A DNA stretch of 64,000 nt, taken from NCBI GenBank assembly GCA_016928775.1, contig JAFGKD010000094.1:9504-73503 (forward strand), in the 5' to 3' direction. The notes under the pieces are model-generated. The model searched no databases and was not told the DNA's origin. It saw only the letters and a program-made list of their open reading frames with translations. The position numbers and the translations under genes are program-made. Position 1 is the first letter of the stretch; each line of letters starts with the position of its first letter. This document shows, piece by piece, positions 8,618-64,000 of the stretch. This stretch comes from Candidatus Zhuqueibacterota bacterium. GTDB lineage: Bacteria > Zhuqueibacterota > Zhuqueibacteria > Residuimicrobiales > Krinioviventaceae.

Positions 8618-9384
8618 AAATGATTGTCAAGCAAGCTGCTCAAATCCTTTACTAATGTTTGCAATACCTCTTTTTCATGACTGTGCAGAAAAAAATGATC
8701 ACCGTCAAACTGACGCAGTTGGATTCCGGCGGTCGTATGCTGTTCCCAGGCCGCCAGGTCTTCTTGCTGGACATCCGTGTCATTGATACCGCCATAGACA
8801 GTAATAGGACACTCTAACGGCAAACCGGGCTTGAATGCAAAGGTCTCGCACACTTTAAAGTCATTGCGAATAATCGGCAAAAACAATTCTCGTAATTCCG
8901 GATTTGTCAATACGGCATCGGGTGTTCCATTCAAGGTTCTGAGCTTTTGCGTAAATTCGTCTTCTGGCAACCGATGAATGTGCTCCCGATCTTTGGACAC
9001 GTGTGGTGCCGCATGCGCAGATACGAATAAATGTACGGGTTGCGGCAAAAAGTATCGCCGCAGGAACCGTGTTAATTCGAAACTGATCAATGCGCCCATG
9101 CTGTGACCAAAAAACACAAATGGTTTGTCCAGATAGCCGGCGATGCCCTGGGCAATTTCCCTGACGATATCCGAAACAGAGTCCAATAATGGTTCGCCTA
9201 ATCGAGAGCCATGTCCTGGCAGCTCGATCGGCACAATCTGCATCTCCTCCGGAGAGGCATTATCCCAACCGCGAAAGACATTGGCGTTGCCGCCGGCATA
9301 ATGAAAGCAAAAGACGCGCACCCGCACGTCCGGTCGGGGAATAAAATTCAGCAGCCAGGGACTTGTCAGTCGGGTATCGATCAT
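8614..9384 (-). CDS. Type II (editing) thioesterase, alpha/beta-hydrolase
   Basis: 256 aa. GHSMGALISFE is the GxSxG nucleophile elbow typical of TEII. The N-terminal FCFHYAGGNANVFRGW is typical of GrsT/SrfAD-like proteins. A distal His lies in DGDHFFL. Confidence 0.85.
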   Translation of the reverse strand: MIDTRLTSPWLLNFIPRPDVRVRVFCFHYAGGNANVFRGWDNASPEEMQIVPIELPGHGSRLGEPLLDSVSDIVREIAQGIAGYLDKPFVFFGHSMGALISFELTRFLRRYFLPQPVHLFVSAHAAPHVSKDREHIHRLPEDEFTQKLRTLNGTPDAVLTNPELRELFLPIIRNDFKVCETFAFKPGLPLECPITVYGGINDTDVQQEDLAAWEQHTTAGIQLRQFDGDHFFLHSHEKEVLQTLVKDLSSLLDNHF

Positions 9385-47373: not shown

Positions 47374-50300
47374 TCACTCCAAATCCAATTCGGAAAGGAC
47401 ATCTTCTAAAACGTTCCCCGTACCACTCTTCGCATGGATATGTATCGATTCACGGCTATAACCGTCCCCGGATTTACTGTGCTCAACAATATCCCGCACA
47501 TGTTGAATATAGCTGTTCGCAAGCGCTTTGATGGTTTCGGCTTTATAGATTTTGTCACTAAAAAGAAAGCTCATCTGCAATTGATCCTGGACAATTTTGC
47601 CACTCACAAAAATTCGGAACGGTCGACGGCTGTTCGGATCACGTTCATCACGAGATTGCTCATCCGATACGCGAAACCGCGGATCATTCGCCACGTGTTT
47701 AAACTGACCTAAATAATTAAAAGCGACTTGCGGTTCCGGGATGGCCGCCAATTTTGTCGTTATATCAGTGTCCGAGCTGAGATAGCGCGCCAAACCATAA
47801 TAAAAACCGTTTTGCGGAACGGCAGCCAATTGCGCTTTGACAGCCTGGACTTTTTCCGAGAGCGTACCGCTGCCGCTGATATCCAGTTGCACCGGATACA
47901 GTGTCGTGAACCAGCCAATGGTTCGGGAAATATCAATATCTTCAAATAGATCCTCACGTCCGTGCCCTTCGAGCGCAACGCGTAGTTCTGGCTCGCCGGT
48001 CCACGCCGAAAACGCCGTAACCAGCGCAGTCAGGAGTATATCAGTTATTTGCGTTTGAAAAATCCTCGGTACCTCCTGTAACAGAGCGAACGTTTCACTC
48101 ACGGACAACTCGACTGTGAGACTTTTTGTGGATGCTTCCACATCTTCTCCCGGAAAATCAACCGGTAGATCAACGGGGCGCGGCGCCTTCAACCACGGCG
48201 CAACGACCTCATTCGCCAGCGAATCGGCATGCTCGCGCAATTTTGTCGCCCATTGCTTGAATGATGTCGTTTTGGCCGGCAACTGAATCTCCTGGCCGTT
48301 CACCGCAGTATCATAGGCGTGCACAATATCTTCCAATAGAATACGCCATGACAAGCCGTCAATGGCCATATGATGAATGGTGATGAACAATTTATCCGGG
48401 CGCCCTTCCCCCATGTTGAAATAAGCACAGCGGAAGATTGGTCCGTGCATCACATCATGGTTGGATTGCAGCTCGCGCATATGTACTTCCAGCGCCTTGG
48501 CCGCCTCGGCATCAGAGAGCGACATCAAATCAAAAACCTGAAACGGTACATTGTTTTCCGGTCTTGTTATAAACGCAGACCATTGATCTGCCTGCTTGTT
48601 GAAGCGAAGCCGAAGAATGTCATGGTGCTCTATAACTTTGACGATTACTTTTTCCAATAGATCGGTGTTGAGCGAGACCATAACATCCAAGACCAATGAC
48701 TGGTTCCAGTGGTTCACATTGGCAAATCCCTGTTCAAAAAACCAGTGCTGGACGGGGGTCAACGGCACATCACCGGTGACAAGACCTTGTTCCGCATCAA
48801 TGTGAATCCCGATCCCGGCATGCGCGGCCAGGCCGCGGATCGTTGGCGTAGTAAAAATCTGTTTAGGAGAAAGTTTCAAACCGCGCTGAAACGCGCGCGC
48901 GATCACCTGAATGCTGAGAATCGAATCACCGCCGAGCTCAAAGAAATTGTCGTCGATACCAATATCTTCGACACCAAGAACCTGTTGCCACACCTCGACC
49001 AGCACTTTTTCCGTCTCGGTTGACGCCTCCGCATAGTCGGATGCCAGGTCCGAGCGTTCAATCTGCGGCCTGGGCAAGGCCTTGCGATCAATTTTTGCAT
49101 TGGGGGTGAGTGGAAACTTGTCCAAGACGACAAAATAGGACGGGATCATATAGTCCGGCAAGCGCGGCAGCAAAAAGTCGCGCAGTTCAACTGCAGTTGG
49201 TTTTTCCTCGCCCACCAGCGTGTAGTAACTAACCAGACGCTTGTCGCCCGGTTCGTCTTCACGCACCAAAACAATGGTTTCCTTGATGGCGGGGTGCTCT
49301 TTCAGATTCGCTTCGATTTCGCCCAATTCCATGCGATAGCCGCGCAACTTGACCTGATGATCCAGGCGACCGAGGAATTGAATATTGCCGTCTCGCATAA
49401 ACCGCCCGAGGTCGCCGGTACAATAGAGACGTTCACCGTTGTCAGAGAACGGATTGGGGATAAATTTTTCCGCTGTCAACTCCGGACGATTCCAGTAGCC
49501 GCGCGCCAAACCGTCGCCGGAAATACAAATTTCGCCCACAACACCAATGGGCACAGCGCGGCGATTCTTGTCGAGAATATAAATCTGTGCATTGGTCAAA
49601 GGTTGTCCGATGGTCGGCTGGTCTGGAGCGTGATTGACATAACAAGTGGTCGCATCAACCGTGCATTCGGTGGGGCCGTACATATTGTAAATCTGAGTGC
49701 CGCATGTTTGCAAAACCCTCCAGGTTGCTTCGTCGATTGCTTCGCCACCTGGCAGCAGCGCCAGAGGCTTCCAGATGTCTTGTTCAAAAAGCCCGGCGTT
49801 CATTAATAGCTTGAGCTGCGAAGGCACGCAGTCCAGAACATCGATTCGATGATCCTGAATGTAGCACAGAAGTGCCTCACCGTCTGTGCGCACATCCGCC
49901 GGAATGATGCAGAGGTGGTTACCACGCAATAAAGTGACCAATTGCTGTACTGAAGCATCAAACAACAACGGCGCGTTAAGACTGGCAACGAGTTGGCGCT
50001 CCGGCAGATTGGTGTAGATTTGATCCTGCAAGCCGACGAAAAGATTGTATGCCGAGCGCTGCGAAATCATCACACCCTTGGGTTTGCCGGTTGAACCGGA
50101 TGTATAAATAACATAGGCGATATTATCCGGCGCGGACAGATGCACCGGATTTGTACATGGATATTCAGACAGTTTTTCACTGTCGCGATCGATGAGAAAA
50201 ACCTGCTGATTCGAAATCGGTAATTGATCCACAACATGCGATTGGGTGAGCAGATGCGCAAGTCCGGTGTCCGCAAAAATAAACTCGAGTCGTTCTCTCG

Positions 50301-53300
50301 GATAATCCGGATCGAGCGGCACATAACCGGCGCCAGCCTTGAGGATGGCTAAAATAGCAACAACCGAATCCACCGAACGCGTCATGCTCACACCGACGAG
50401 TGATTCCGAGCCCACACCGTGCTTGCGTAGATAATGGGCACATCGGTTGGCACGTTCATTCAATTCGGCGAACGTTACTTGATTATCCTGATCAGAAACG
50501 GCTAAACGATGCGGTGTCCTGTCCACTTGTGCTTCAAACAACGCAGGAAGACAAATGTCCTCCGGCAAGGATTTGCGGTTGCTGTTGAAATCACAGACAA
50601 TCGTATGATAATCAACAGTATCGAGCAAAGTCACATCCCCGACCGGCATGTCGGGATTGCTTGTGAGATTGTGCAGCAAAATTTCGAAATGGTGCACCAA
50701 AGACTGTATGGTCGATTCGTCAAACAGATCGGCGTCGTACTCTAATTGGCCGCGCAGTGTGCCAAAACGTTCGACCATGCTCATGGATAGATCAAACTTG
50801 GCAGCGCCGCTGGAAATCTGGAAGACCGACAGCCTCACGTTTGTGAGCTCGAGACTCTCTAATGCCGATTCCTGCATAGCGAACATGACCTGGAAAAAAG
50901 GCGTATGTTGGGTGTCGCGTTCGGGTTGCAGGGCATCGACCAGCTTTTCAAACGGAATGTTTTGATGATCGTAAGCCTCCAGCGCTGCATTCTTGACTTG
51001 CCGTAAAAGTTGTGCGAATGAAGGATTATCGGATAAATCCGCTCGCAGCACCAGGGTGTTGACGAAAAATCCGATGAGCGGTTCAATTTCCTTGCGCGTC
51101 CGGTTGGCGATTGGCGTGCCCACCAAAATATCGGTCTGATTGGCATAGCGGGCAAGGAGTACCTGAAATGCCGCCATCAGGGTCATAAAAACAGTAGTGC
51201 CGTGGTCACGACTCATTTTCTTAATCGCCTCCGACAGCTCTTTCGAGAGATTGTAAATCACTTCACGTCCCTTGTGCGTCCTGGTCATGGATCGAGGATG
51301 GTCTGTGGGCAATTCCAGAGCCGGCGGCACATCGGCTAATTGATTTTTCCAATAGGACAATTCAGTCTCAAGACGCTCGCCCGAAAGCCATTGGCGTTGC
51401 CAGGCGGCAAAATCAGCGTACTGCACAGTGAGTGGCGGCAATGTCAATGGTTTCTTGTGCAGCAGCGCTTCATGAATTTCCGTGAACTCACGGATAAAAA
51501 CATTCACCGACCAGCCATCGGAGATGATATGATGCATGACAATCACCAGCACATATTCTGTGATCGCCAGACGAATCATTTTCGCGCGAATCAGCGGACC
51601 GTGCTGCAAATCAAAAGGTTTGGCAGCCTCGGCATTGGCGATCTGCTGCGCCAAATGCTCACGATTCTCACCAGCATAGTCGCGCAAATCGACTAATGGC
51701 AATTCGATTTTTAACGCCGGACGTACAATCTGCCGCACGCGACCATCCGCCATAGTATCGAACGTCGTACGCAACGTCTCGTGTCGCTCGATGATAGTGT
51801 TCAAGGTCAATTCAAACACACCCAAGTCGACATCACCCAACAAACGTACAGCTATCGGAATATTGTATTGATTATTACCCGGTTCAAACTGATCGAGAAA
51901 CCAGAGGCGCTGCTGGGCAAACGACAAGTGCAGGTCTTTGTCGCGCGGAACGCGGGCAATGTGCACAACTTTATCAGCCTCGCGCAATTGTTCGGCCAAA
52001 TCTTTTTCCACCGGATAGCCAAACTGCGCTGCCAGGTCCCAGCCAATGTCGCATAAAAAATCATGCTTGTGAAATGTTTTCCATTTATCCGCCACGCTGG
52101 TGTTGATATTTTTGTGCAGATAAAATTTAAAATCTCCGACCATTTGCACATTCTTTTGTACGCCGTCGGTCATCTTTTTGCCTTTGTACGGTTCCAGCAT
52201 GGCGGGCTGGAAGTCGATGCCCAAAAATTTGCACATATGTTCAAGCTCGGCCTGCGGATTGAGCAGAATATCCTCAAAACGCACGCGATGTTGACGCTCC
52301 TGCGGCACATCCTGCAGAAATGCCAAAATATTTTGATTGCTGATAATCCAGATGATTTCGGCCAACTCGCGTCGCGTAAAAGCATGCTCATAGCGAAAAA
52401 AGTTCTGATCCAGCTTGGCTTCGATGAACGAATAAATCATTGCGTAAGGATGGCGCACGAGATGAATATAATGTGCATCCGCAAAATTTTCCTCCGCCCG
52501 CTTGAGAATGTGCGGATCGAACGGATAGGTCGGCGTTTTATCGACAAGCAATCGACCGCCCAAAAGAAGTTGTAGTTCACGATAAAATTCTTTGGTCGAC
52601 AGATTACGCTCCTCATACGCACTCATCAATTGTGTCGCCTCATCGACAGCACACTGTTTAAGCTCCATCAAGGCACGTACGGTCGCCTGCAGCCAGATTT
52701 CCAGGCCTTCCTGGGAAAAGGCAGCTTTGCGTTCCCGCAATGTATTAAAGGTGAGCAGGTCCAATTCCGGCGGCGAGAAGAGCTGTGAATTGCCGGCCAA
52801 CATGACGCGCAGCAATGTCGAACCGGAGCGCGGCGGCGACAGCACAAATACTGCTTTGCTGTTTTTCGGCATGGATTTGATATTTTCCGGTTGTGGCCGC
52901 AGGGGATTGATCAAATCGCGAAATTTCTGCAATTTATTTGCATCAACCGTCACGTCAATCCTGGATTCATCAACGGCCACCTCAAAGTGATAGTCTTTTG
53001 TCGCCTCTTCGCCAAACCTGGATTTTACCTGGTCCGTATAATACTCAGCGATATACATGGACAGCTCGTCGATGGTGGGGGCCTTGAAAACAGCGGCGAC
53101 GTGCGCGGATTCACCCAGGTCTTTTTGCAGCCGATTCATCAGCACCGCCGCCTTTAGCGAATTGCCGCCCAGATCGAAAAAATTATCGTGGATGCCAATT
53201 TTTTCAATGCCCAGCAGTTCTTGCCAGACACCAGCTAAATAAGATTCCAGTTTGTTCCGTGGCGCAACAAAATCGCTGCCGCGCCTTTCAAGTGAGGTCG

Positions 53301-56300
53301 TTGGATCCGGCAAAGCTTTCTTATCGACCTTGCCATTCGGTGTGAGTGGCAGCGCCGCAATCGATACAAAAAAGGTCGGCACCATATAGTCCGGCAGTTT
53401 TTCCAGGAGTGACGTTTTGAGCCGGCCGAGGTCAAGCTCGACGTTTTCGCACGGCACCACATAAGCGACAAGTTGTTTTTCGCCGAGCTTGTTGGCCCGC
53501 GCTAACACCACCGTGTCGGAAATCAGCTCATTCTGCTTGAGCAACGATTCTATTTCCCCCAACTCGATGCGGAATCCGCGGATTTTGACCTGCTGGTCGA
53601 TCCGCTCCAAAAATTCAACAGAACCATCGGTCGTGTAGCGCACGAGATCGCCGGTTTTGTACAAGCGATCACCGGTCACACCAAATGGATTTTGAATGAG
53701 TTTCTCGGCGTTTAATTCCGGACGATTCAAATATTCGATCATCAAACCATCGCCGCCGAGATAGAGCTCGCCCGGCACGCCAACCGGACAAATATGGAGA
53801 TGCCTGTCCAGCACATAATGTATTGAATTGGCAATGGGTTTACCAATAGGAACATTATTCACCCAATCGTCGTCAACTCTGATTTCGTAAAACGTAGAAA
53901 AAGTTGTATTCTCGGTTGGACCATATACATTTAGCAAATGCTGGGGCGGTTCATGGTTTATTGCATGCCTGGTTGCGCTTGCATCAGCCGCTTCGCCGCC
54001 AAACATCATTGTTTTCAGCGATCGAAATGCGCCCGGAATTTCATTTGTCATCTGGTTAAAATAGGCGACCGTCAAAAACATTGCCGTGATGTTTTCGGCC
54101 CGCAACCGCTCGACAAAGGTTTGCGAAGACAGCATCACCTCTTTGCTGATACCGACGAGTCGTGCGCCGGTTAAAAAAGCGCCCCAGATTTCAAAAGTAG
54201 CGGCATCAAACGCCGCATTGGAAACCTGCGCAATAATGTCTTCCGGAGTAATAGTGATGTAATTGGTCTTGATCACCAATCGCGTGATCGCACGATGCGG
54301 CACGACAACACCTTTGGGTTTTCCGGTGGAACCAGACGTGTAAATGATGTACGCCGCAGCCGTCGCCTCGACATGAATGTTCGGATTAGTTATCGGCTGC
54401 GCTGCAATCCTTTCCCAGTCCGCATCCACGGCAATACGGGAAAAATCGCCCAACGGCACCTCATCTGCCAATTGACGCTGCGTCAATACGACCGGCGCCT
54501 GGGTATCGTCCAACATAAAATCAATTCGCGCCGCGGGATAAGCCAAATCGAGCGGCACATAACACGCCCCGGCTTTGAGGATCGCCATGATGCTCACGAT
54601 CATGTCGACCGAACGTTCCATATATATCGCCACTCTGGCCCCGGGCTGAACGCCTATATCGATCAAATGCCGAGTCAGTTGATTTGCTCTTTCATTCAAC
54701 TGACGATAGGTTAATATGTCGTTTTCATACTTGACTGCGACAGCATCAGGTGATTTTTCGACCTGTTCCTCGAACAGGGTGTGCACAGCCCGGTCTCGCG
54801 GATAGTCCGTTTGGGTGTCATTCCATTCGTGTATAATCTGATGCTGCTGTGCGGTTGTGAGCAGTGAATATTTGTCAATTGTATACTCCGGATGTTGCGC
54901 AATGTGACGAAGCAGGGTGAGATAATAAACCGCCATCAATTCAACAGTCGAGCTCTTGAATAGCTCGGTGTTGTACTCGATGGTGCACTGTATCGTCTCA
55001 TCTTTGTCCATCAGCAAAAACAGCAGATCAAACTTGGCGGTCTCGAGCTCCATTTCATAAATATCCATGTTGATATCGGACAGCGACATGGCCTTGAGCG
55101 GCGAGGTTTGCAGATCAAACATGACCTGGAAAAGTGGCGAATGGCTCAAATCGCGATGCGGCTGCACGGTTTCGACGATTTTTTCAAAAGGGATATCCTG
55201 GTTCTCGGTCGCCAGCAGGATGTCGTTTTTCACCCGCTTGAGCAGATCAATAAAGGTGATCTGTTCAGAAAACTGCGCGCGCAGGGCAATAGTGTTGACA
55301 AAAAAACCAACGATGGATTCCAGCTCCTTGCGAAAACGATTGGCAATAGGCGCACCAATGCCAAAATCCTCTTGCTGGGTATATTTGTAAAAAAACAGCT
55401 GTGTCGCGGCCATCAGCGTGTTGAACAGGGATGATTGTTGTTCACGGCTCAACTGTCGCAGCGCTGCCGTGGTCGCCGCATCCAATTCGACTTTGAAATG
55501 GTCACCTTTATGAGATAACACGGACGGACGCTGAAAGTCAGTGAAAATCTCCAGAACCGGCGGCATGCCGTGCAGATAATTTTTCCAATAGACCAATTGT
55601 TTGTCGAGATTGTTAGCCGATACTTTATTGTTTTGCCACTCGGCGTAATCGGCAAACTGTAACATGGGTTCCGGCAACGGCGAAGGTTTGTTGCGACGTT
55701 CCGCTTCGTACAATGTCAAAACTTCCTGCAAAATGATGCCGATTGACCAGCCATCCACAATGATGTGATGCATATTGAGCATCAACACATGCTCGGTTTG
55801 GCTTTTGCTGAGCAGAAACGCGCGCAGCAATGGCGCTTCCTGTAACTGAAAGGCCGTTGCAGCGATTGTTTTGAGCCGGGAAGCGATCTCACCTTCCACA
55901 CTTTCCGCTGCCACATCGGACAAGTCAATGCGCTCAAGAGGGATATCGAGCTGCGCATGTACCTTTTGCTGCGGATTGCCGGTATCATCAATGATATAAC
56001 AGGATCGCAGAATTTCATGTCGCGCCACAACTTGATTGATCGCTTTTTCCATGGCACCAGCATCGATCCGTCCGTTTATCGTGACGGCAGAGGGCACGTT
56101 GTAAAATGCACTGCCGTGGTCGAGCTGATCCAAAAACCACAGCCGCATTTGCGCGGCTGACATGGGATAGGCGTCATGATCGGTCCGCTTGGTGATTCGT
56201 TCTTTCGGTGTCGCCGCCATTCCCTTGAGGCGCATTTTTTTACGCAGTAACTCTAGTTGTTCAGGCGACAAATTTTTCAGTTTTTCAGATATATTCATGG

Positions 56301-56310
56301 GTATTCTCAA
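47374..56310 (-). CDS. NRPS B (2978 aa): C-A-T-[sulfotransferase domain]-C-A-T-E with an N-terminal docking peptide
   Basis: Residue-by-residue count. Docking head EKLKNLSPEQLELLRKK. C1 has HHIIVDGWS at aa 181-189. A1 spans aa ~500-1005, with A3 AAYIIYTSGSTGKPKG at 54340, A4 AAFDAATFEIWGAF, and an atypical A6 LYLGGDGLMIEYLNRPEL. T1 is FFDLGGNSLKAA (aa 1045-1054). The sulfotransferase domain spans aa ~1105-1445. C2 has VMHHIISDGWS at aa 1592-1600. A2 has A3 IAYVIYTSGSTGKPKG and A4 LLFDASVQQLV. T2 is FFELGGDSILSIQ (aa 2456-2468). The E domain has LTPVQHWFFE, HHMAIDGLSW and LEGHGRE. A3-to-A3 spacing in this protein is about 4245 nt, against about 3.2 kb in every other protein. Confidence 0.9.
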   Translation of the reverse strand: MRIPMNISEKLKNLSPEQLELLRKKMRLKGMAATPKERITKRTDHDAYPMSAAQMRLWFLDQLDHGSAFYNVPSAVTINGRIDAGAMEKAINQVVARHEILRSCYIIDDTGNPQQKVHAQLDIPLERIDLSDVAAESVEGEIASRLKTIAATAFQLQEAPLLRAFLLSKSQTEHVLMLNMHHIIVDGWSIGIILQEVLTLYEAERRNKPSPLPEPMLQFADYAEWQNNKVSANNLDKQLVYWKNYLHGMPPVLEIFTDFQRPSVLSHKGDHFKVELDAATTAALRQLSREQQSSLFNTLMAATQLFFYKYTQQEDFGIGAPIANRFRKELESIVGFFVNTIALRAQFSEQITFIDLLKRVKNDILLATENQDIPFEKIVETVQPHRDLSHSPLFQVMFDLQTSPLKAMSLSDINMDIYEMELETAKFDLLFLLMDKDETIQCTIEYNTELFKSSTVELMAVYYLTLLRHIAQHPEYTIDKYSLLTTAQQHQIIHEWNDTQTDYPRDRAVHTLFEEQVEKSPDAVAVKYENDILTYRQLNERANQLTRHLIDIGVQPGARVAIYMERSVDMIVSIMAILKAGACYVPLDLAYPAARIDFMLDDTQAPVVLTQRQLADEVPLGDFSRIAVDADWERIAAQPITNPNIHVEATAAAYIIYTSGSTGKPKGVVVPHRAITRLVIKTNYITITPEDIIAQVSNAAFDAATFEIWGAFLTGARLVGISKEVMLSSQTFVERLRAENITAMFLTVAYFNQMTNEIPGAFRSLKTMMFGGEAADASATRHAINHEPPQHLLNVYGPTENTTFSTFYEIRVDDDWVNNVPIGKPIANSIHYVLDRHLHICPVGVPGELYLGGDGLMIEYLNRPELNAEKLIQNPFGVTGDRLYKTGDLVRYTTDGSVEFLERIDQQVKIRGFRIELGEIESLLKQNELISDTVVLARANKLGEKQLVAYVVPCENVELDLGRLKTSLLEKLPDYMVPTFFVSIAALPLTPNGKVDKKALPDPTTSLERRGSDFVAPRNKLESYLAGVWQELLGIEKIGIHDNFFDLGGNSLKAAVLMNRLQKDLGESAHVAAVFKAPTIDELSMYIAEYYTDQVKSRFGEEATKDYHFEVAVDESRIDVTVDANKLQKFRDLINPLRPQPENIKSMPKNSKAVFVLSPPRSGSTLLRVMLAGNSQLFSPPELDLLTFNTLRERKAAFSQEGLEIWLQATVRALMELKQCAVDEATQLMSAYEERNLSTKEFYRELQLLLGGRLLVDKTPTYPFDPHILKRAEENFADAHYIHLVRHPYAMIYSFIEAKLDQNFFRYEHAFTRRELAEIIWIISNQNILAFLQDVPQERQHRVRFEDILLNPQAELEHMCKFLGIDFQPAMLEPYKGKKMTDGVQKNVQMVGDFKFYLHKNINTSVADKWKTFHKHDFLCDIGWDLAAQFGYPVEKDLAEQLREADKVVHIARVPRDKDLHLSFAQQRLWFLDQFEPGNNQYNIPIAVRLLGDVDLGVFELTLNTIIERHETLRTTFDTMADGRVRQIVRPALKIELPLVDLRDYAGENREHLAQQIANAEAAKPFDLQHGPLIRAKMIRLAITEYVLVIVMHHIISDGWSVNVFIREFTEIHEALLHKKPLTLPPLTVQYADFAAWQRQWLSGERLETELSYWKNQLADVPPALELPTDHPRSMTRTHKGREVIYNLSKELSEAIKKMSRDHGTTVFMTLMAAFQVLLARYANQTDILVGTPIANRTRKEIEPLIGFFVNTLVLRADLSDNPSFAQLLRQVKNAALEAYDHQNIPFEKLVDALQPERDTQHTPFFQVMFAMQESALESLELTNVRLSVFQISSGAAKFDLSMSMVERFGTLRGQLEYDADLFDESTIQSLVHHFEILLHNLTSNPDMPVGDVTLLDTVDYHTIVCDFNSNRKSLPEDICLPALFEAQVDRTPHRLAVSDQDNQVTFAELNERANRCAHYLRKHGVGSESLVGVSMTRSVDSVVAILAILKAGAGYVPLDPDYPRERLEFIFADTGLAHLLTQSHVVDQLPISNQQVFLIDRDSEKLSEYPCTNPVHLSAPDNIAYVIYTSGSTGKPKGVMISQRSAYNLFVGLQDQIYTNLPERQLVASLNAPLLFDASVQQLVTLLRGNHLCIIPADVRTDGEALLCYIQDHRIDVLDCVPSQLKLLMNAGLFEQDIWKPLALLPGGEAIDEATWRVLQTCGTQIYNMYGPTECTVDATTCYVNHAPDQPTIGQPLTNAQIYILDKNRRAVPIGVVGEICISGDGLARGYWNRPELTAEKFIPNPFSDNGERLYCTGDLGRFMRDGNIQFLGRLDHQVKLRGYRMELGEIEANLKEHPAIKETIVLVREDEPGDKRLVSYYTLVGEEKPTAVELRDFLLPRLPDYMIPSYFVVLDKFPLTPNAKIDRKALPRPQIERSDLASDYAEASTETEKVLVEVWQQVLGVEDIGIDDNFFELGGDSILSIQVIARAFQRGLKLSPKQIFTTPTIRGLAAHAGIGIHIDAEQGLVTGDVPLTPVQHWFFEQGFANVNHWNQSLVLDVMVSLNTDLLEKVIVKVIEHHDILRLRFNKQADQWSAFITRPENNVPFQVFDLMSLSDAEAAKALEVHMRELQSNHDVMHGPIFRCAYFNMGEGRPDKLFITIHHMAIDGLSWRILLEDIVHAYDTAVNGQEIQLPAKTTSFKQWATKLREHADSLANEVVAPWLKAPRPVDLPVDFPGEDVEASTKSLTVELSVSETFALLQEVPRIFQTQITDILLTALVTAFSAWTGEPELRVALEGHGREDLFEDIDISRTIGWFTTLYPVQLDISGSGTLSEKVQAVKAQLAAVPQNGFYYGLARYLSSDTDITTKLAAIPEPQVAFNYLGQFKHVANDPRFRVSDEQSRDERDPNSRRPFRIFVSGKIVQDQLQMSFLFSDKIYKAETIKALANSYIQHVRDIVEHSKSGDGYSRESIHIHAKSGTGNVLEDVLSELDLE
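47440..48800 (-). other. Epimerization domain of NRPS B (approximate bounds)
   Basis: It is preceded by an E-type T domain (GGDSI). Motifs are PLTPVQHWFFEQ, HHMAIDGLSWRIL and LEGHGRE. It occupies the C-terminal ~460 aa. Confidence 0.75.
51976..52998 (-). other. Integrated PAPS-type sulfotransferase domain inside NRPS B, between T1 and C2
   Basis: About 340 aa. The 5'-PSB loop VFVLSPPRSGSTLLRVML lies at about 52810..52836. The 3'-PB region KTPTYPFDPHILKRAEENFADAHYIHLVRHPYAMIYSF lies at about 52447..52539. It shares these motifs with the stand-alone sulfotransferase at 11192..12313. It is flanked by an intact T domain upstream and a C domain downstream (LHLSFAQQRLWFLDQ). Confidence 0.8.
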
Positions 56311-56316
56311 GCAAGT

Positions 56317-59300
56317 CTATTCTTCACTGAGCAATCGTTGCAATTCCTCTTCAGACAGATTTTCAACTTCCGACAGCATTGAGGCCAGCTCCTGTTCATC
56401 AACCTGAGCAGCTTGTTCTTCGGCGATGGCGCGCGCAATACCTTCGGCTGTGGGATTTTCAAATAAAACGCGCAAAGGCAGCTCAACCTGATATTCTTCC
56501 CGTAATTGCGACACAATTTGTGTTCCCAACATGGAATGCCCCCCCAGCTCAAAAAAATTGTCCAGCACACCGACGTGCTCGACTTTGAGCACCTCAGCTA
56601 AAATCTCGGTCAAACGTTTTTCAGTCGCCGTGCGCGGTGCGATATATTCTGTCTCGACATGTGGTCGCAGTTGATCAGGTTCTGGCAAAGCGCGGCGGTT
56701 TATTTTGCCGGCAGGAGTCATCGGCATTCTTTCAAGCTGCATAAAAGCGCCTGGAATCATATAGTCCGGCAATCTCGTTTGTAAAAAGTCGCGCAGATTA
56801 GTCACCGACGGCTCGTTTTCACCAACAAATTCATAATACGCCACAAGCACCTTTTCTGCAGAACCGCTCTGGCGAGAAATCACAATGCCGTTTTTCATCC
56901 CAGGGTATTGATTCAGCATCGCTTCAATTTCACCCAATTCAATACGATAGCCGCGGATTTTCACCTGTTGATCGACACGGCCTAGAAACTCAATATGTCC
57001 GCGATTGTTATAGCGTACCAGATCACCGGTTCGATACAACCGCTCACCTGCGCCATAAAATGGATTGGGGACAAAACGCTCGGCTGTCAAATCCGGCCGG
57101 TTCAAGTAACCGCGCGCCAGCGTGTACCCGCCAATATAGAGCTCGCCGGGAAGACCGATTGGAACGGGAAAACCATGCGCGTCCAAAATATAAACCGCTC
57201 GTTGCAAAAGCGCTTGACCAATCGGGATGCTACCTTCATCCACTTCCTCGCGCCACTGTACAGGAATATCAAAAGCTGTAGCCGTGATCGTTGTTTCTGT
57301 TGGCCCATAGGCGTTAATGAGCCTCGCCTGTCGCAAGGGCGACTGCTGCCACGGCGTGAGGGAATCTGTGGACATGAGATCGCCGCCAATAATCACGAGC
57401 CGAACTGACGACTCTTTCAAGCCATCCTCAGCCCAGATTTTAACACACTGGTTCCAATACGCCGTCGGCAGATTGATCACAGTCAACTGCTGGTCACGGA
57501 TAAAACGAATCAATTCTTCCGGTGACCATACTGTATTATCCCGCATGAACAGCGAAGCGCCCGTCAACAGGGTTGGGAAAATTTGCTCGAGAGCAGCGTC
57601 AAAATTTGTCGAGGCAAATTGCAAAATCCTGTCCTGCGGCGTCAGTTGATAGAATTGCTGCATGCCCAAACAGTGCTGCACAAATGCCGCATGTGTGATG
57701 AGCACGCCTTTGGGAGCGCCGGTTGATCCGGAGGTGTAAATAATGTACGCGCTTTGTTGCGGATGGATCGTTGGGCTGATATTTTGTGCATCCGAATCTG
57801 AATTTGGCTCAAGATGTTCATCCACAAACAAAATCGATAACGAATCCGTTTTGATTAACGTGGCAATTTTACTGTGCGATATCACAACCGAAACTTTTGA
57901 ATCCGCCAGCATGTACTCAATTCGATCCGGCGGATAATCGGGATCGAGTGGCAGGAACGCGGCGCCGGCTTTCAGGATTGCCAGCATGCAAACGAGAAGG
58001 TCAATCGAACGCTCCAAATAGATGCCGACAATAGAATCAGGCTGGACACCCCGCTCGAGCAGTTGACGCGCTAATTGGTTGGCGCGCGCGTTGAAAGCGG
58101 CGTAAGAAAGAGTTTCCGAGCCGCAGGAAATGGTCGCATCGGGCGTCCTTACGACTTGGTGCTCGAGATAATAACATATAGAATGCTCAAAGTGCAGCGG
58201 CTGTCGCGCTGATTCATTTTTTGCGCTTAATAATACCGCTTTTTCATGTGCTGTTAAATATTGAATATCCGAGATCGGCTGATCGGCATGATCACCGATC
58301 TCTTTGAATAATGTTTTGATGTGCCCGATCATCCGTTCGATGGTCGCGCTATCGAACAGGTCCGTATTATAAACGATCTGACCATCGAGTCCGCCGTTTT
58401 TCGGCTCGAGCACAAATGTCAAATCAAATTTTGCCGTCGGTGTATGAAGCTGCAGGGGTTCAATAGTGACATTGGGCAAAACAAGCTGTTGTGCCGGTGC
58501 ATTCTGCATGACAAACATGGTTTGAAAGTAAGGTGGTCGACTCATGTCGCGTTCGGGTTTGAGCTCTTCCACAATCATTTCAAACGGGATGTCCTGATGC
58601 GCAAAAGCACCCAGGGCTGTTTCCTTGACCCGCTTTACCAGATCGATAAACGATGGATTACCCGACAAGCTCGTGCGCATAACCAACGTATTGACAAAGA
58701 CACCAAGCAGCGATTCAAGCTCGGAACGGTTTCGATTGGCGATCGGGGTGCCAATCGAAATATCGTCCTGCCCCGAATAGCGACGCAGTAAAAGCGCCAG
58801 CGCCCCCAGCAAGGTCATAAACAGCGTGACATCATATTTTTTGCTCAAACTCTCGAGGTTTTTTGTGATATCCTGCCTAATAGTGAAATAAAAAACATCT
58901 CCATTATGCGTTTGGATTTTCGGTCGCGGATGATCAATCGGCACATTGAGCGCTGTATCGCCGCCTGCTAACTTTTCGTGCCAAAAGCCCAATTGCTGCT
59001 GCAATACCTCACCCTGCAAATAGTCGCGTTGCCAGCACGCATAATCGACATATTGAATGGGCAAATCCGGTAAAACGACCGAAGTGCCGGAAGTATAGCT
59101 TTGATATAACGCCGCAAATTCTTTGATAAAAACAGTCAGCGTCCAGGCATCCGAAATAATATGATGCATGGTCACTAAAAAGACATAGTCATTGGTGTCC
59201 ATTTTGATCAGCAGCGCACGCATCATCGGGCCGGTTTGCAGATTGAACGGTGCTTGAGAAATCTGAACGGATTCCTGGTGCAGGCGTTTTTGCCGCTCGT

Positions 59301-59700
59301 CGAGCGGCAGACTCGACACATCCAGTTGCTCTAATTGAATAGCGCTTTCGGCCTGCAGTCGTTGCACCGGCACACCATTTTTGCTCTCGAAAACAGTGCG
59401 TAGCACCTCGTGCCGCTGCCCCAGGCTTGTCAAGACATGCTCAATCGCAGCAATATTGATGATGCCCTTGATGGATACGGCAGCGGGATTGTTATACATG
59501 GGATTCCCCGGTTCCAGTTGGTCGAGGAACCACATCCGCTGTTGGGCATAGGAGAGCGGAAAGTGTTCTCGCTCGCGGCTCTGCGGCAAAATGCGAGTTT
59601 TCTTTAAATCAACATTTTGCTCGGCTAGTATTTTTTCCAAAAGCTTTCTCTTTTCCGGAGAGAGCTTGCTGATGTCTCTGAAAATATCGTTCATAGGCAA
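56317..59700 (-). CDS. NRPS A (1127 aa): C-A-T single module with N- and C-terminal docking peptides; first amino-acid module after the PKS
   Basis: Docking head FRDISKLSPEKRKLLEKIL. C domain: LSYAQQRMWFLDQLEPGNPMYN with MHHIISDAW (a D-A variant of HHxxxDG). A3 SAYIIYTSGSTGAPKG lies near 57745, A4 is ASTNFDAALEQIF, and A5 is NAYGPTETT. The T domain is FFELGGHSMLGTQ. The acidic tail is ASMLSEVENLSEEELQRLLSEE. Confidence 0.9.
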   Translation of the reverse strand: MPMNDIFRDISKLSPEKRKLLEKILAEQNVDLKKTRILPQSREREHFPLSYAQQRMWFLDQLEPGNPMYNNPAAVSIKGIINIAAIEHVLTSLGQRHEVLRTVFESKNGVPVQRLQAESAIQLEQLDVSSLPLDERQKRLHQESVQISQAPFNLQTGPMMRALLIKMDTNDYVFLVTMHHIISDAWTLTVFIKEFAALYQSYTSGTSVVLPDLPIQYVDYACWQRDYLQGEVLQQQLGFWHEKLAGGDTALNVPIDHPRPKIQTHNGDVFYFTIRQDITKNLESLSKKYDVTLFMTLLGALALLLRRYSGQDDISIGTPIANRNRSELESLLGVFVNTLVMRTSLSGNPSFIDLVKRVKETALGAFAHQDIPFEMIVEELKPERDMSRPPYFQTMFVMQNAPAQQLVLPNVTIEPLQLHTPTAKFDLTFVLEPKNGGLDGQIVYNTDLFDSATIERMIGHIKTLFKEIGDHADQPISDIQYLTAHEKAVLLSAKNESARQPLHFEHSICYYLEHQVVRTPDATISCGSETLSYAAFNARANQLARQLLERGVQPDSIVGIYLERSIDLLVCMLAILKAGAAFLPLDPDYPPDRIEYMLADSKVSVVISHSKIATLIKTDSLSILFVDEHLEPNSDSDAQNISPTIHPQQSAYIIYTSGSTGAPKGVLITHAAFVQHCLGMQQFYQLTPQDRILQFASTNFDAALEQIFPTLLTGASLFMRDNTVWSPEELIRFIRDQQLTVINLPTAYWNQCVKIWAEDGLKESSVRLVIIGGDLMSTDSLTPWQQSPLRQARLINAYGPTETTITATAFDIPVQWREEVDEGSIPIGQALLQRAVYILDAHGFPVPIGLPGELYIGGYTLARGYLNRPDLTAERFVPNPFYGAGERLYRTGDLVRYNNRGHIEFLGRVDQQVKIRGYRIELGEIEAMLNQYPGMKNGIVISRQSGSAEKVLVAYYEFVGENEPSVTNLRDFLQTRLPDYMIPGAFMQLERMPMTPAGKINRRALPEPDQLRPHVETEYIAPRTATEKRLTEILAEVLKVEHVGVLDNFFELGGHSMLGTQIVSQLREEYQVELPLRVLFENPTAEGIARAIAEEQAAQVDEQELASMLSEVENLSEEELQRLLSEE

Positions 59701-59714
59701 TTGTTGTATCAGAA

Positions 59715-62700
59715 TTATTTACTCTGCTGCGCAAGCAAAGCCTGCACTTGTTCATCGGAAAGACTATCCACCATTTTGAGCGCTTGAGCGATTTTTTCAG
59801 CTTCGTCATCCTGTTCTGTTTTTACCTTTTGCACAAGTTCACTAATTGTTGCGATGGTTGGTGACTCGAACAAATCGCGCAGTGGCAGCTCAACGCGGTA
59901 GGTATCGCGCATGCGGGAGACCAATTGCGTCGCTAACAAGGAGTGACCGCCGAGATCGAAAAAATCATCGTAAATACCGATGCCATCGATACCTAATAAT
60001 TCACCCCAGATATCCGCCATATGTTTTTCCAGCTCATTGCGCGGCTCGACAAAAGGCGTCGTCATATTGGGACGGGGTTGACGTGTCCCTGACGTTTGCA
60101 TGCTCTGGTCAGCGCTTTCGGATTCAAATCGTACCCATATTTTAATCCGTTGCGATAAATCACCCGTCGAGACCACGATTTGCGGCAATCCCATGTTTTG
60201 TAAAATGATATCAAATGCTCGCACGCCTTCGCTCGCGCTCATGACGAATTCTTCAATATCCATTCTGCTCGCTGTCTCGCCAAAAGACCAGCCATCCCAA
60301 TTGACACTCGTCCAGATTGTGTTGCCCTTTTTGTTCTGAATGGCTGCCAAAGCATCAAGATAGGCATTGGCCGCAGCATAGGCATACATACCAAGACCGC
60401 CGAGAATGGTGGAGAGTGAGGACTGGAAAATAACAAAGTCGAGGCCATCTTCTTTCGACAGTATTGATGCGAGCACCCGGCTACCGTAGATTTTTGAAGT
60501 AAACTGGTTTTCGCTGGTATCCACGTCCGTATCCTGGATCGTCACGGTCGCGCGTTCCCCAACCAGTCCGGCGGCATGAATGATACCGTTCAGGCCACCA
60601 AAATGCTCGCGTGTCCAATTGAGGATATTGAGCATCTGATTTTGATCAGAGATATTGGCATGCAGCACCAACACTTCGGCGCCTTTTTCCTCATATTCCT
60701 GAATGAGCTTTATTTTGCCAGCAATCCGGGAATCATCTTTTTTGATGATCTCACTCCATTCATCCCGCTCCGGCAGGGCGATCTGATCGACAAGCACAAG
60801 TTTTGCCTGATAATTTTCCGCCAGATGGCCGGCCAGGGTGAGGCCAATATTGCCGAGTCCTCCGGTGATCAGATAAATTCCCTCCTGGCGCAGGAGACTT
60901 GCAACATCTGTAGAGGATTCAGCAGCAAACGGCTCAAATCGTTGCACCCATCGTAGCTTGTTTCGGTAAGCGATCACTGTATCGGTTGATCGCGCTTCAA
61001 ACTCCTGCAACAAGACATCGAGGTTATACTCATCTGTATCTATCATATGACAACGCATGTTGGAGTATTCTTGCGGCACAATCTTGCATGCGCCAAGAAA
61101 AGCCGCGTTGTCAGGATTGAGCGCTTCTGCACCGGTGATGTCAAAGGCCTCTCGCGTGCCAATATTCATATGGATGGGATTGGTGATGCCGTGCCGCGCC
61201 AGATTTTTCACCAACCAGAGCAGCGAATAATAACCCTTTTGCAAAGAATTTCTGACATCTCGGCTCGACATCGTCCAGGCGTGCACGATTCGATCGGGGA
61301 TGTAATTTTCAGCCACCAAATGGTCGACCAGCTTTTCGTAATGCTCCTGTTGCTCCGGGCGGACGATCATTTTGTGTTCATCAACATAAAAATCCGAACC
61401 TGTTTGTATGATCTTGTAGTGGTGTTTTGCACTCGTGAGTCGATTAATGAGATTTTCATCAATATCCTGGTCAATGAAAAACAGGTATTTCAAGTTTTCA
61501 TGACTTTCATCAGAAGACCGAAAGAGCGCCCGTTTCCAGGTCGGGGTATAAAACCAATCAATAATATTTTTGCTTTTGCCTTTCGAACGTCTTGCTGCAC
61601 CCGATGCCGGCAAGTGAACATTCAACCAATAGCGTTGCCTTTCGAACGGATAGGTCGGCAACGGAATGCGGTGACGGACCTCGTAGGTATCAAATCCCTC
61701 CCAATTCACATCGCCACCCACCAGCCAGATTCGCGCTAATGTATTCAAAAGAAAAGCCTGATCATGAGCTTGGTCTTTCGGATGGCGAATGGACGACAAG
61801 ATCACTTGATCTGCTGACGCTGAGTCGTGAAGGCGCGTGAGCGTATTGAGCGTTTTTCCGGGACCGACTTCAAGATAAATATAATCAAAGCCGCCCAGCA
61901 GTTCACCAATGCCTTGATGAAATTTGACCGGCGAACGGAGATGTTCGGCATAATATCGCGGATCAGTCGCTTCATCAGCGGTAATCCATGTACCTGTCAC
62001 ATTTGAAATATACGGAATTTCCGGGGGATTAAAATGGACGTGTGCACAACGTTGTTGAAATGTCTCGATGATTGGCTCCATCATATAGCTATGAAAAGCG
62101 TGCGAGGTGTGCAGTCGGGTAAATTCAACCTGGTCTTTTTCAAGACTTTTTACGAGCTCATTTACCGCTTCAAAGGTCCCACTCAAGACCGTTAGATGTG
62201 CAGCATTCAAGGCCGAAATATTCAGATCCTTGTTTAAATATTTCCCCAGGTCCTGGACGCCCAGATTCACGCTCAACATGGCGCCACCCGGCATTCGCTG
62301 CATTAAATCACCGCGCAAAGCGACGAGCATCAAAGCGTCTTCCAGACTCAGCACGCCGGCCAGACAGGCAGCCACGTATTCGCCAATACTATGACCGATC
62401 ATGGCTTGCGGTTCCACACCCCATTCTTTCAAAAGCATGGCCATCGCATATTCTATAACAAACAAGGCAGGCTGGGTAAAACGGGTTTGTGCGAGTTGTT
62501 CTTGAGCTAACTGCTTCTCTCCTTCGTTCGGATAAATCACCGTACGCAAATCAACTCCGAGAGTGGAATCCAGCAGGTCACAGCAGGTATTGATACTCTC
62601 TCGAAAAGTCGGTTCATTCTCATAAAGATCGCGACCCATATTGACGTATTGAGCGCCCTGGCCACTGAACATAAACACGATTGACTTTTCCTCGATATCT

Positions 62701-64000
62701 TCCGGATGGCTGTAGACCAAAACGCGCTCCGGATCAACCGAACCCAAAACAGCAATTGCATCCTGGCGCGATTGACAAACAACCGCCATACGGTGGGGAA
62801 AACTTTTGCGGCCCAATTGCAGGGTAAACGCCACATCGGCCAGATTCACTTCAGGATTGTTTTCCAGAAAGACGACAAAATTTTCTCTGGCTTTCGACAG
62901 AGCCTGCTGTGATCTGGCGGACAGCAGCAGCAGTTGATGTTGGCGCGACTGCGTTGTTTTCACACGCTCGGGAGCGTCCTCCAATATCAGATGAACATTG
63001 GTGCCGCCTATGCCGAACGAGCTTACTCCGGCGAAACGCGGTGTACCCTCTGGGTGCCAATCGCGCAATTCGCTATTGACAAAAAAAGGTGAACTCTCAA
63101 GCTCCAATTTGGGATTGGGCGCAGTGAAATTGATGTTAGGTGGAATTTTTTTATGTTTTATCGCCAAAGCTGTTTTGATCAGGCTGGTGACACCGGCCGC
63201 AGCGTCGAGATGACCAACATTCGGTTTGACCGAGCCAATCGCGCAATATTGGGTCCGTTCCGTTCTCTCGCGAAACACTTTGGTGAGCGCGGTAATTTCA
63301 ATAGGATCACCCAGATTTGTTCCTGTTCCGTGCGTTTCTATATAGGTAATATCATCCGGCTCCACGCCTGAGACCAGTTGCGCTTCAGCAACAACATGCG
63401 CCTGGCCATCCACACTCGGCGCCGTATAGCCGACCTTGAGCGCGCCGTCATTATTGCACGCTGCGCCTTTGATGACCGCATAAATATTGTCATTGTCGGC
63501 CAGTGCATCTTCCAGGCGTTTGAGCAGCACCACACCGCAACCATTACCGGGCATGGTACCATTGGCATCAGCATCAAAGGCACGACAATGCCCATCAGGT
63601 GACAATATCATGCCTTCCTGATACAGGAATCCCGATTTTTGTGGAAATGTGATTGTACAGCCGCCGGCCAATGCCATGTCGGACTGATAGTTCACCAAAC
63701 TCTGGCATGCCAAAAAAACTGCGGTCAGGGAAGTCGAGCAGGCAGTTTGCACATCCAGACTGGGACCGCGCAGATTCAGCTTGTAGGAAACTTTGGTCGT
63801 TAAAAAGTCTTTTTCATTGCCGATGGAAATTTGGTAACCTTCCGCTGTGTCTATTTTACCTTCCGTGGCTGCGAGAAAAGGGATGATATAGGTGTTCATT
63901 CCGGCACCGGCAAATGTACCGATGAGACCGGGGAAACTATCCGGACAATAGCCGGCATTTTCCAAAGCTTCCCAGGCACATTCCAAAAACAAACGATGCT
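59715..64000 (-). CDS. Type I PKS module KS-AT-KR-carrier protein; N-terminus (start of KS and anything upstream) lies outside the window
   Basis: The frame stays open to the window edge. The ORF-track M is a TTG inside the conserved KS motif ASLFLECAWEALENAGY. KS: TACSTSL (Cys at about 63738..63740), HGTGTNLGDP, NVGHLDAAAG, GGTNVHLILED. AT: GQGAQY, GHSIGE (Ser about 62391..62393), HAFHS (malonyl-type). KR: LITGGLGNIGLTLAGHLA (about 60843..60866) and a K...S...YAYAAANAYLD catalytic set. Carrier: FFDLGGHSLLATQ. C-terminal docking tail: ALKMVDSLSDEQVQALLAQQSK. Confidence 0.9.
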   Translation of the reverse strand, partial: HRLFLECAWEALENAGYCPDSFPGLIGTFAGAGMNTYIIPFLAATEGKIDTAEGYQISIGNEKDFLTTKVSYKLNLRGPSLDVQTACSTSLTAVFLACQSLVNYQSDMALAGGCTITFPQKSGFLYQEGMILSPDGHCRAFDADANGTMPGNGCGVVLLKRLEDALADNDNIYAVIKGAACNNDGALKVGYTAPSVDGQAHVVAEAQLVSGVEPDDITYIETHGTGTNLGDPIEITALTKVFRERTERTQYCAIGSVKPNVGHLDAAAGVTSLIKTALAIKHKKIPPNINFTAPNPKLELESSPFFVNSELRDWHPEGTPRFAGVSSFGIGGTNVHLILEDAPERVKTTQSRQHQLLLLSARSQQALSKARENFVVFLENNPEVNLADVAFTLQLGRKSFPHRMAVVCQSRQDAIAVLGSVDPERVLVYSHPEDIEEKSIVFMFSGQGAQYVNMGRDLYENEPTFRESINTCCDLLDSTLGVDLRTVIYPNEGEKQLAQEQLAQTRFTQPALFVIEYAMAMLLKEWGVEPQAMIGHSIGEYVAACLAGVLSLEDALMLVALRGDLMQRMPGGAMLSVNLGVQDLGKYLNKDLNISALNAAHLTVLSGTFEAVNELVKSLEKDQVEFTRLHTSHAFHSYMMEPIIETFQQRCAHVHFNPPEIPYISNVTGTWITADEATDPRYYAEHLRSPVKFHQGIGELLGGFDYIYLEVGPGKTLNTLTRLHDSASADQVILSSIRHPKDQAHDQAFLLNTLARIWLVGGDVNWEGFDTYEVRHRIPLPTYPFERQRYWLNVHLPASGAARRSKGKSKNIIDWFYTPTWKRALFRSSDESHENLKYLFFIDQDIDENLINRLTSAKHHYKIIQTGSDFYVDEHKMIVRPEQQEHYEKLVDHLVAENYIPDRIVHAWTMSSRDVRNSLQKGYYSLLWLVKNLARHGITNPIHMNIGTREAFDITGAEALNPDNAAFLGACKIVPQEYSNMRCHMIDTDEYNLDVLLQEFEARSTDTVIAYRNKLRWVQRFEPFAAESSTDVASLLRQEGIYLITGGLGNIGLTLAGHLAENYQAKLVLVDQIALPERDEWSEIIKKDDSRIAGKIKLIQEYEEKGAEVLVLHANISDQNQMLNILNWTREHFGGLNGIIHAAGLVGERATVTIQDTDVDTSENQFTSKIYGSRVLASILSKEDGLDFVIFQSSLSTILGGLGMYAYAAANAYLDALAAIQNKKGNTIWTSVNWDGWSFGETASRMDIEEFVMSASEGVRAFDIILQNMGLPQIVVSTGDLSQRIKIWVRFESESADQSMQTSGTRQPRPNMTTPFVEPRNELEKHMADIWGELLGIDGIGIYDDFFDLGGHSLLATQLVSRMRDTYRVELPLRDLFESPTIATISELVQKVKTEQDDEAEKIAQALKMVDSLSDEQVQALLAQQSK
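59838..60050 (-). other. Carrier protein domain of the PKS module (PCP-like GGHSL phosphopantetheine site)
   Basis: EKHMADIWGELLGIDGIGIYDDFFDLGGHSLLATQLVSRMRDTY. Confidence 0.75.
60123..61565 (-). other. Ketoreductase domain (structural plus catalytic subdomains); no LDD motif seen
   Basis: Rossmann motif TGGLGNIG and catalytic Lys (FTSKIYG), Ser (FQSSLS) and Tyr (YAYAAANAY). The region before the catalytic subdomain reads HAAGLVGERAT and lacks an LDD triad. Confidence 0.7.
61713..62690 (-). other. Acyltransferase domain, malonyl-CoA-type (HAFH)
   Basis: GHSIGEYVAACLAG and HAFHSYMMEP; aa about 435-760. Confidence 0.75.
62973..64000 (-). other. Ketosynthase domain (partial)
   Basis: Motifs as listed for the PKS CDS; aa 1 to about 340 of the in-window translation. 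Confidence 0.8.

Follow-up and report, generated by a model that had tools for sequence, protein, structure and literature searches.

A ketoreducing polyketide synthase module from an uncultured Zhuqueibacterota bacterium: a probable internal, statine-forming step of a lipopeptide assembly line

The passage of a chain from a nonribosomal peptide synthetase (NRPS) to a ketoreductase (KR)-containing polyketide synthase (PKS) is the accepted route to 3-hydroxy-4-amino units in didemnin, burkholdac, hapalosin, thalassospiramide and nosperin, in which an NRPS module ending in a thiolation (T) domain is followed by a KR-only PKS module and the line then continues (PMC12081711). The PKS gene described here lies at one end of a 64,000-nucleotide stretch of DNA (hereafter, the window) from Candidatus Zhuqueibacterota bacterium (assembly GCA_016928775.1, contig JAFGKD010000094.1), and codes for a ketosynthase-acyltransferase-ketoreductase-carrier (KS-AT-KR-carrier) module followed by NRPS genes. 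The NRPS-PKS(KR)-NRPS interface of statine type is of a well-known kind, the present member being that of a KSB1-type uncultured host. Unlike in the didemnin-type pairs, the PKS is here a stand-alone protein with a carrier of the peptidyl carrier protein (PCP) type and docking tails, an N-acylated aromatic residue close to the lipid is the predicted donor, the genes belong to an uncultured, KSB1-labelled bacterium of the FCB group, and the system is known from genes alone. The module is ordinary in kind, and is of use mainly for predicting the structure of the product and for prioritising the cluster.

In bleomycin biosynthesis, BlmIX, BlmVIII and BlmVII form an NRPS-PKS-NRPS interface, in which BlmVIII is a single KR-containing PKS module with a C-methyltransferase. 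As in the bleomycin system, a single KR-type PKS module is located here between NRPS modules on separate proteins, and the downstream condensation (C) domain would accept a beta-hydroxy-gamma-amino acyl chain. The C-methyltransferase of BlmVIII is not shared by the present PKS, the two being likened by description and not by sequence. CurM of the curacin pathway and the olefin synthases, with the order KS-AT-KR-ACP-ST-TE (ACP, acyl carrier protein; ST, sulfotransferase; TE, thioesterase), also include a KR-only module giving a 3-hydroxyacyl thioester, and a homologous ST is present in the line described here. In contrast to CurM, this ST is located outside the PKS module, between the T domain of the second downstream NRPS module and a C domain, with no TE behind it; decarboxylative alkene formation is therefore not expected. 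The lipopeptide starters of the mycosubtilin/iturin MycA and puwainaphycin type are primed by a fatty acyl-AMP ligase (FAAL). The whole present cluster likewise starts with FAAL-ACP-KS-AT; in contrast to the MycA-type starters, the starter role belongs here to an upstream gene outside the window and not to the KS-AT-KR-T module.

We propose, with a probability of about 0.8, that the KS-AT-KR-carrier protein works inside a FAAL-primed NRPS/PKS line for a lipopeptide, as an elongation module of hybrid type that makes a statine-like unit. An internal module, fed by a peptidyl carrier, is indicated by the gene order NRPS-T, PKS, C-A-T (A, adenylation), which is kept in relatives. Seven related loci were examined, with PKS identities from 89% down to 51% and labels of uncultured Cytophagia, KSB1, Zhuqueibacterota or unlabelled metagenomes: L015 (89%), L002 (a contig of a Cytophagia metagenome-assembled genome; 76%), L016/17 (69%), L018/19 (66%), and L020 and L022 (51%). 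An NRPS module ending in T is located directly upstream of the KS in L002, L015, L016, L018, L020 and L022 as well as in L001, a contig extending the present locus (see below), and in several loci, including L002, the NRPS stop codon and the PKS start codon overlap. The order NRPS-T, KS-AT-KR-T, C-A-T, C-A-T-ST-C-A-T is conserved in L015, L016, L018, L020 and L022, that is, in every examined locus reaching far enough downstream. The lipid-side PKS domains are variable, with none in L022, a dehydratase (DH) alone in the present strain, L016 and L018, and DH-ER-KR (ER, enoylreductase) in L020, while the KS-AT-KR-T module is constant across the relatives. Synthesis and variation of the lipid cap are therefore placed upstream, and the KS-AT-KR-T module is the invariant part coming after the first amino acid or acids. 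In L020 (KSB1 relative GCA_034506215), a stand-alone methyltransferase gene (14903-15952) is inserted between PKS and NRPS A, so that in this lineage an O- or N-methyl group may be added close to the statine-like unit.

In the proposed pathway, the T domain of the NRPS module before the PKS would pass to the KS an aromatic aminoacyl chain with an N-acyl group, most likely fatty-acyl-Tyr in the present strain and acyl-Tyr-Phe in some relatives, in which an extra C-A-T is kept; this assignment of the donor chain follows collinearity and the A-domain codes. The AT would load malonate onto the PCP-type carrier of the module itself, the KS would extend the chain with malonate by decarboxylative condensation, and the KR would reduce the 3-keto group, with neither DH nor ER acting afterwards. 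The product predicted from these steps, a 4-(acylamino)-3-hydroxy-5-arylpentanoyl thioester, has the γ-acylamino-β-hydroxy pattern of a statine-like unit. The tail of the carrier protein would then dock on the head of the first downstream synthetase, NRPS A, and the LCL-like C domain of NRPS A would form the amide bond with the next residue. Three fates can be envisaged for the 3-hydroxyl: persistence as a free group, sulfation by the CurM-like ST, and elimination. The predicted end product is a large, possibly sulfated lipopeptide with a statine-like residue inside. Units of the statine type serve as the warhead in inhibitors of aspartic proteases, and we know of no natural products from uncultured KSB1, Zhuqueibacterota or Cytophagia-type bacteria. 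A literature search on biosynthetic gene clusters of this type from KSB1/Zhuqueibacterota gave nothing relevant.

The upstream genes could be read from L001, a 40-kb Logan contig found through an exact-protein match to NRPS A, which shares 17,684 bp with the window at 0 mismatches. Within the window, the PKS open reading frame (ORF), on the minus strand with the stop codon at 59715-59717, stays open through base 64000 and has no start; about 98 N-terminal residues of the KS and all upstream genes fall outside. A TTG listed as the start at 63992 was rejected as an artefact of the ORF lister, the frame being still open to base 64000. The full PKS gene is located at 5403-9980 of L001 (1525 codons, 1525 amino acids), and is under purifying selection, with a dN/dS of 0.07 against the 89%-identical ortholog of L015. 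At NCBI, the identical protein carries the label candidate division KSB1, in keeping with an FCB-group host.

The product of the gene upstream (3097 amino acids), as read from its visible part on L001 and the complete ortholog in L016, is arranged as FAAL-ACP-KS-AT-DH-ACP-C-A-T (L001, 1-4677; L016, 248-9538). Lipid-to-peptide coupling is assigned to a C domain of its own (HHIVMDMWS), placed immediately behind the first ACP. In the lipid-side KS-AT-DH-ACP, the DH is apparently intact (HPLLG..., DACCQ) and no KR is present in cis. A DH or aminotransferase acting on the 3-position, upstream or in trans, had been raised as a caveat: a DH does exist upstream, but in the preceding lipid-side module, with nothing to indicate its action on the KS-AT-KR-T product, and neither DH nor aminotransferase genes in trans were found within the window. 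The A domain that feeds the PKS carries the code DASTIAAVCK in the present strain, L015, L016 and L018, which in terms of the Stachelhaus codes is presumably Tyr-like, and the extra module of L015 carries DAWTIAAVCK, presumably Phe-like on the same grounds. The literature on the A-domain codes of this cluster yielded nothing relevant.

Between the FAAL-NRPS gene and the PKS gene, a 238-amino-acid ORF (L001, 4607-5323) was identified as the remnant of a C-A-T module, in which ~100 residues from the start of a C domain are joined in frame to the end of an A domain and an intact T domain with the core GGHSLLMMKLHA (GGHSL). At the same position, L015 encodes a complete C-A-T module of 1119 amino acids, with which the remnant shares 79% identity over residues 1-100 and 64% over ~932-1085, about 850 residues in between being missing; a premature stop is present in the linker. 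Against L015, the remnant has a dN/dS of 0.23-0.33, above the values for the PKS (0.07) and for the synthetases on either side (0.09-0.14). L016/L017 have no such module at all, only 463 bp of non-coding DNA at its position. A repeat-collapse between the neighbouring A-T regions was considered as the origin of the remnant and rejected, because these regions are only 55% identical and because the gap relative to the L015 module is clean and in frame, with matching sequence before and after it. Loss of the extra C-A-T module thus appears to be a real and recurrent event in the family. Presence or absence of a whole module is polymorphic within this one family of clusters.

The PKS gene is a genuine cis-AT modular type I gene for a beta-ketoreducing elongation module, and its features and those of the adjoining NRPS A are as follows.

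59715..64000, minus strand: 3' part (4.3 kb) of the PKS gene, the first ~98 codons lying beyond the window end
63126..64000, minus strand: KS domain from residue ~99 to ~389 in full-length numbering (Pfam PF00109/PF02801 and motifs)
63738-63740, 63330-63332 and 63210-63212, minus strand: Cys185, His321 and His361 of the KS
62745..63119, minus strand: KS-AT linker, KAsynt_C_assoc / CurL-like (Pfam PF16197, PF22621, PF22336)
61860..62678, minus strand: AT domain, malonyl type by its motifs (Pfam PF00698, E 1e-50)
61029..61466, minus strand: structural (pseudo-KR) subdomain of the KR (Pfam PF21394)
60288..60881, minus strand: catalytic subdomain of the KR (Pfam PF08659, E 2e-34; family alignment; HMMER alignments)
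59832..60017, minus strand: carrier domain of PCP type, FFDLGGHSLLAT (Pfam PF00550; Ser1451 at 59940-59942)
59718..59810, minus strand: docking-type C-terminal tail (...KIAQALKMVDSLSDEQVQALLAQQSK), kept in orthologs
59560..59694, minus strand: N-terminal head of NRPS A (MNDIFRDISKLSPEKRKLLEKILAEQ...), presumed docking partner
58228..59571, minus strand: C domain of NRPS A, predicted acceptor of the PKS product, HHIISDAWT (Pfam PF00668, E 1.5e-116)
56317..58227, minus strand: A-T part of NRPS A, A code DAENIGAITK

Pfam matches on the PKS protein were obtained for ketoacyl-synt/Ketoacyl-synt_C (E 1e-44 to 1e-70), Acyl_transf_1 (E 1e-50), the KR structural subdomain and KR (E 2e-34) and PP-binding (E 8e-16), while no match to DH, ER or methyltransferase families (nor to PS-DH or ADH_zinc_N) was detected in the protein at E<=1e-3. 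The Cys-His-His triad of the KS is complete, with Cys185 in TACSTS, His321 in ETHGTGT and His361 in NVGHLD. The AT carries GHSIGE (Ser635 at 62388-62390) and HAFH (residue 731, from 62100-62102), the latter being a motif of malonyl specificity, and these motifs predict malonyl as the extender. In the KR, the Rossmann motif GGLGNIG and the catalytic Lys1267, Ser1292 and Tyr1305 (YAAAN) are all present, and the Ser and Tyr regions align with those of solved KRs. Since the KR is accompanied by neither DH nor ER, the product would be left as a 3-hydroxyacyl thioester. The initial annotation had described the domain content with its motifs, the malonyl-type AT, the intact Lys/Ser/Tyr triad of the KR and the 3-hydroxyacyl product in the same terms; the domains and motifs were borne out by Pfam and translation, including the check on the catalytic Tyr and Lys, and the predicted product is supported by them. 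The best PDB match of the PKS was 8xju, of which the record title says only 'Polyketide synthase', and a literature search on its identity found nothing.

The stereochemical type of the KR was less clear. The LDD motif is replaced by VGE (HAAGLVGE, 60561-60563), with E, T, S, A, R, D or N at its third position across 58 family members, and the B-type markers P144 and N148 are likewise missing. The Trp diagnostic of A-type KRs, eight residues before the catalytic Tyr, is replaced by Leu1297 (60402-60404), which is Leu in 58/58 family members; in the HMMER alignments, PlmKR1 (4hxy) and 4imp have their Trp at this position. The closest solved KRs are those of hybrid or trans-AT systems (MlnE, PksJ) and an NRPS-embedded KR (6ulw). 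With neither LDD nor the A-type Trp in place, these fingerprints decide for neither type, A or B. An A-type KR had been proposed; the absence of LDD on which it was based is correct, but with Leu in place of the diagnostic Trp, here and family-wide, the call is weak, 'A-type' being the output of a default rule.

The carrier domain, with the core FFDLGGHSL, is a true PCP as judged from its sequence. Its best PDB matches are PCPs (PvdL, LgrA, PaxA and TycC), and within the cluster it shares 47-69% identity with the T domains preceding LCL-type C domains, as compared with 33-38% for T domains preceding a KS, 36-39% for those preceding an epimerization (E) domain and 23% for the upstream ACP, in agreement with the NRPS-like carrier noted at the outset. 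The upstream ACP also feeds a C domain, and therefore a PCP-like carrier is not required for transfer from PKS to NRPS. NRPS A (C-A-T, 56317-59694) is located 20 nt downstream of the PKS gene, and hand-off in trans from the PKS carrier to its C domain, as predicted in the initial annotation, is supported by conserved synteny, by docking-type extensions and by fused homologs, since a large homolog family at ~50% identity includes single proteins of the order KS-AT-KR-T-C-A-T.

The PKS ends with the tail SLSDEQVQALLAQQSK, directly followed by the stop codon, and NRPS A starts with MNDIFRDISKLSPEKRKLLEKIL and has the head LSPEKRKLLEKIL. In the fused homologs, the T-C linkers are short and of the ordinary NRPS type, with neither the LS(D/E)E..LL tail nor the LSPEKRxLL head, and the extensions of the split version therefore fit docking elements. 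The same class of tail, however, ends NRPS A and NRPS C, and LSPEKRxLL-type heads are also present on NRPS B and NRPS D, so that the motif pair recurs at three interfaces of the cluster, including NRPS A-B and NRPS C-D. The reported match between tail and head thus holds in that both extensions are present, but it is a generic interface class by sequence and no evidence for PKS-specific recognition; the interaction itself is presumed. Two docking classes can be distinguished in the cluster: T-ending proteins have LS(D/E)E..LL tails paired with LSPEKRxLL heads, and E-ending proteins pair with heads of the ...IEAIYPLSPMQ type, resembling COM domains (N-termini of 40861-47331 and 26568-32951, minus strand; C-termini of NRPS B and NRPS D).

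According to the initial annotation, the C domain of NRPS A must accept a polyketide or fatty acyl donor. By pairwise identity, no sign of a special, PKS-accepting subtype was seen: the values are 44-50% against C domains that follow homologous PKS modules in fused proteins, and 46-49% against the nearest LCL domains within the cluster (37-49% when all of these are taken), and the domain is thus LCL-like. The HHIISDAWT motif is kept in close orthologs but not in L020 (DGW), and the C domains of the fused homologs have the canonical HHI(I/V)SDGWS (HHxxxDGWS). The Gly-to-Ala change in HHIISDAW was accordingly rejected as a general signature of PKS acceptance. The simplest reading of these sequences is that a normal LCL domain would meet a normal PCP. 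The A code of NRPS A, DAENIGAITK, is invariant in L001, L015, L016, L018, L020 and L022 (DPENIGAVTK in a fused Blastocatellia homolog), and therefore the residue right after the PKS unit is strictly conserved.

The initial annotation took the module as the first extension step, building a 3-hydroxy fatty acyl N-cap for a lipo-initiation-like C domain of NRPS A. Nothing is located upstream of the KS within the window, a KS-AT-KR-carrier followed by C suits a lipid starter, and in cyanobacteria the 45%-identical homologs L006 and L007 are parts of 2,640-2,680-amino-acid ORFs starting ~1.8 kb upstream of the match. With the upstream genes at hand, such a role is very unlikely, because FAAL-ACP-PKS and one or more C-A-T modules stand ahead of the KS in L001 and in six related loci, the lipid is coupled to the peptide at the separate HHIVMDMWS domain, and the C domain of NRPS A is LCL-like; the KS is instead placed behind an NRPS T domain. 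The edge of a window can make an internal module look like a starter, as in the present case. The donor might also be the T domain of the remnant, loaded or fed in trans so as to give acyl-Tyr-X, or the remnant might be an artefact hiding a full C-A(Phe)-T module. Its intact T core, its in-frame junction and its position at that of the complete L015 module favour this view, which we nevertheless regard as improbable: most of the C and of the A domain is missing, dN/dS is raised 3-4 fold over the neighbouring genes, the linker contains a premature stop, and in L016/L017, which are without the module, the protein next to the PKS on its upstream side is that of the Tyr module, which has the same basic tail at its C-terminus. 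Still less credible is a PKS module without activity, or one passed over by the line, as a relic comparable to the remnant beside it; module decay is evident at this locus, but the catalytic motifs are all intact, selection is purifying, and the module was found in every relative examined.

Several points weigh against the internal, statine-forming role that we prefer. The KR-dependent statine route itself rests on cluster analysis and is not verified experimentally, and pepstatin uses a different, F420-dependent reductase (PMC12081711). The substrate class assigned to the KS follows from gene order only, the intact-looking T domain of the remnant makes the exact donor carrier uncertain, and the remnant is known from one short-read assembly only. 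Trans-acting tailoring enzymes encoded upstream of the FAAL gene are possible.

The fate of the 3-hydroxyl may depend on a further domain of the cluster, located in NRPS B (47374-56310), which has the order C-A-T-ST-C-A-T-E and, in its first T domain, GGNSL instead of GGHSL.

52204..52851, minus strand: CurM-type ST domain after the first T domain of NRPS B, candidate modifier of the 3-hydroxyl (Pfam PF13469)

Among PDB structures, this ST matches the ST of CurM (4gbm, E 7.9e-69) and that of an olefin synthase (4gox, E 1e-58). The substrates that STs of the CurM family sulfonate are 3-hydroxyacyl thioesters on carriers. NRPS B with its ST accompanies the KR module in every relative reaching far enough, down to 51% PKS identity, L016, L018, L020 and L022 among them. 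The A code of the ST-containing module varies (DAFFMGVTFK, DAFTMGVTFK, DASTIAGI- and DAYFSGV-T), specifying by code mostly non-hydroxylated residues, and the side chain of this residue is therefore disfavoured as the target of ST; the hydroxyl made by the KR would be the sole one invariant across the family. To our knowledge, no characterised example exists of a CurM-type ST embedded in an NRPS between T and C, and a search of the literature on ST domains in NRPSs found nothing relevant. A CurM-like ST inside an NRPS is a more unusual feature than the PKS module itself.

Sulfonation of the 3-hydroxyl by the ST, as the initial annotation suggested, is plausible, and the 3-hydroxyl may then be only an intermediate, with the sulfate either kept or eliminated to give an alpha,beta-unsaturated unit without any DH. 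The match to a beta-hydroxyacyl-carrier sulfotransferase (E 8e-69), the co-conservation of PKS-KR module and NRPS B, and an invariant KR-derived hydroxyl next to a variable, mostly non-hydroxylated residue of the ST module all argue for such an intermediate. The ST, however, is two modules downstream, after an NRPS T domain and before a C domain, and the ACP-ST-TE logic of CurM is not reproduced; Tyr-like residues in the predicted peptides offer alternative acceptors, and a second, stand-alone ST is also encoded. On these grounds, this fate is regarded as possible rather than likely: the family assignment of the ST stood, and the CurM layout did not. That the KR-only PKS module and the CurM-type ST are a conserved functional pair, by which the 3-hydroxyl is sulfonated on the assembly line, is put forward as a tentative and rather doubtful proposal. 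If it is true, the product would contain an O-sulfated statine residue or, after elimination of sulfate, a vinylogous aromatic amino acid made without DH, and the CurM-style activation of a hydroxyl would be extended from polyketide chain termination to mid-chain peptide editing. The second ST (11192-12313, minus strand) matches Sulfotransfer_3 (E 5e-33), has weak PDB matches to 2z6v and 2zq5, and is not CurM-like.

The last large synthetase of the window (12369-26522, minus strand; 4717 amino acids) ends with a T domain (GGDSI) and an E-type domain (HHLITDGVSW) and is without a TE in cis, the sole TE of the window being a stand-alone protein of 256 amino acids (8614-9384, minus strand). Near this end of the window (1823-7194, minus strand), two secreted proteins, one with Kelch repeats and the other with PPC, Big_1 and F5/8 type C domains, carry C-terminal sorting domains (Por_Secre_tail) of the type IX secretion system, which fits a host of the FCB superphylum.

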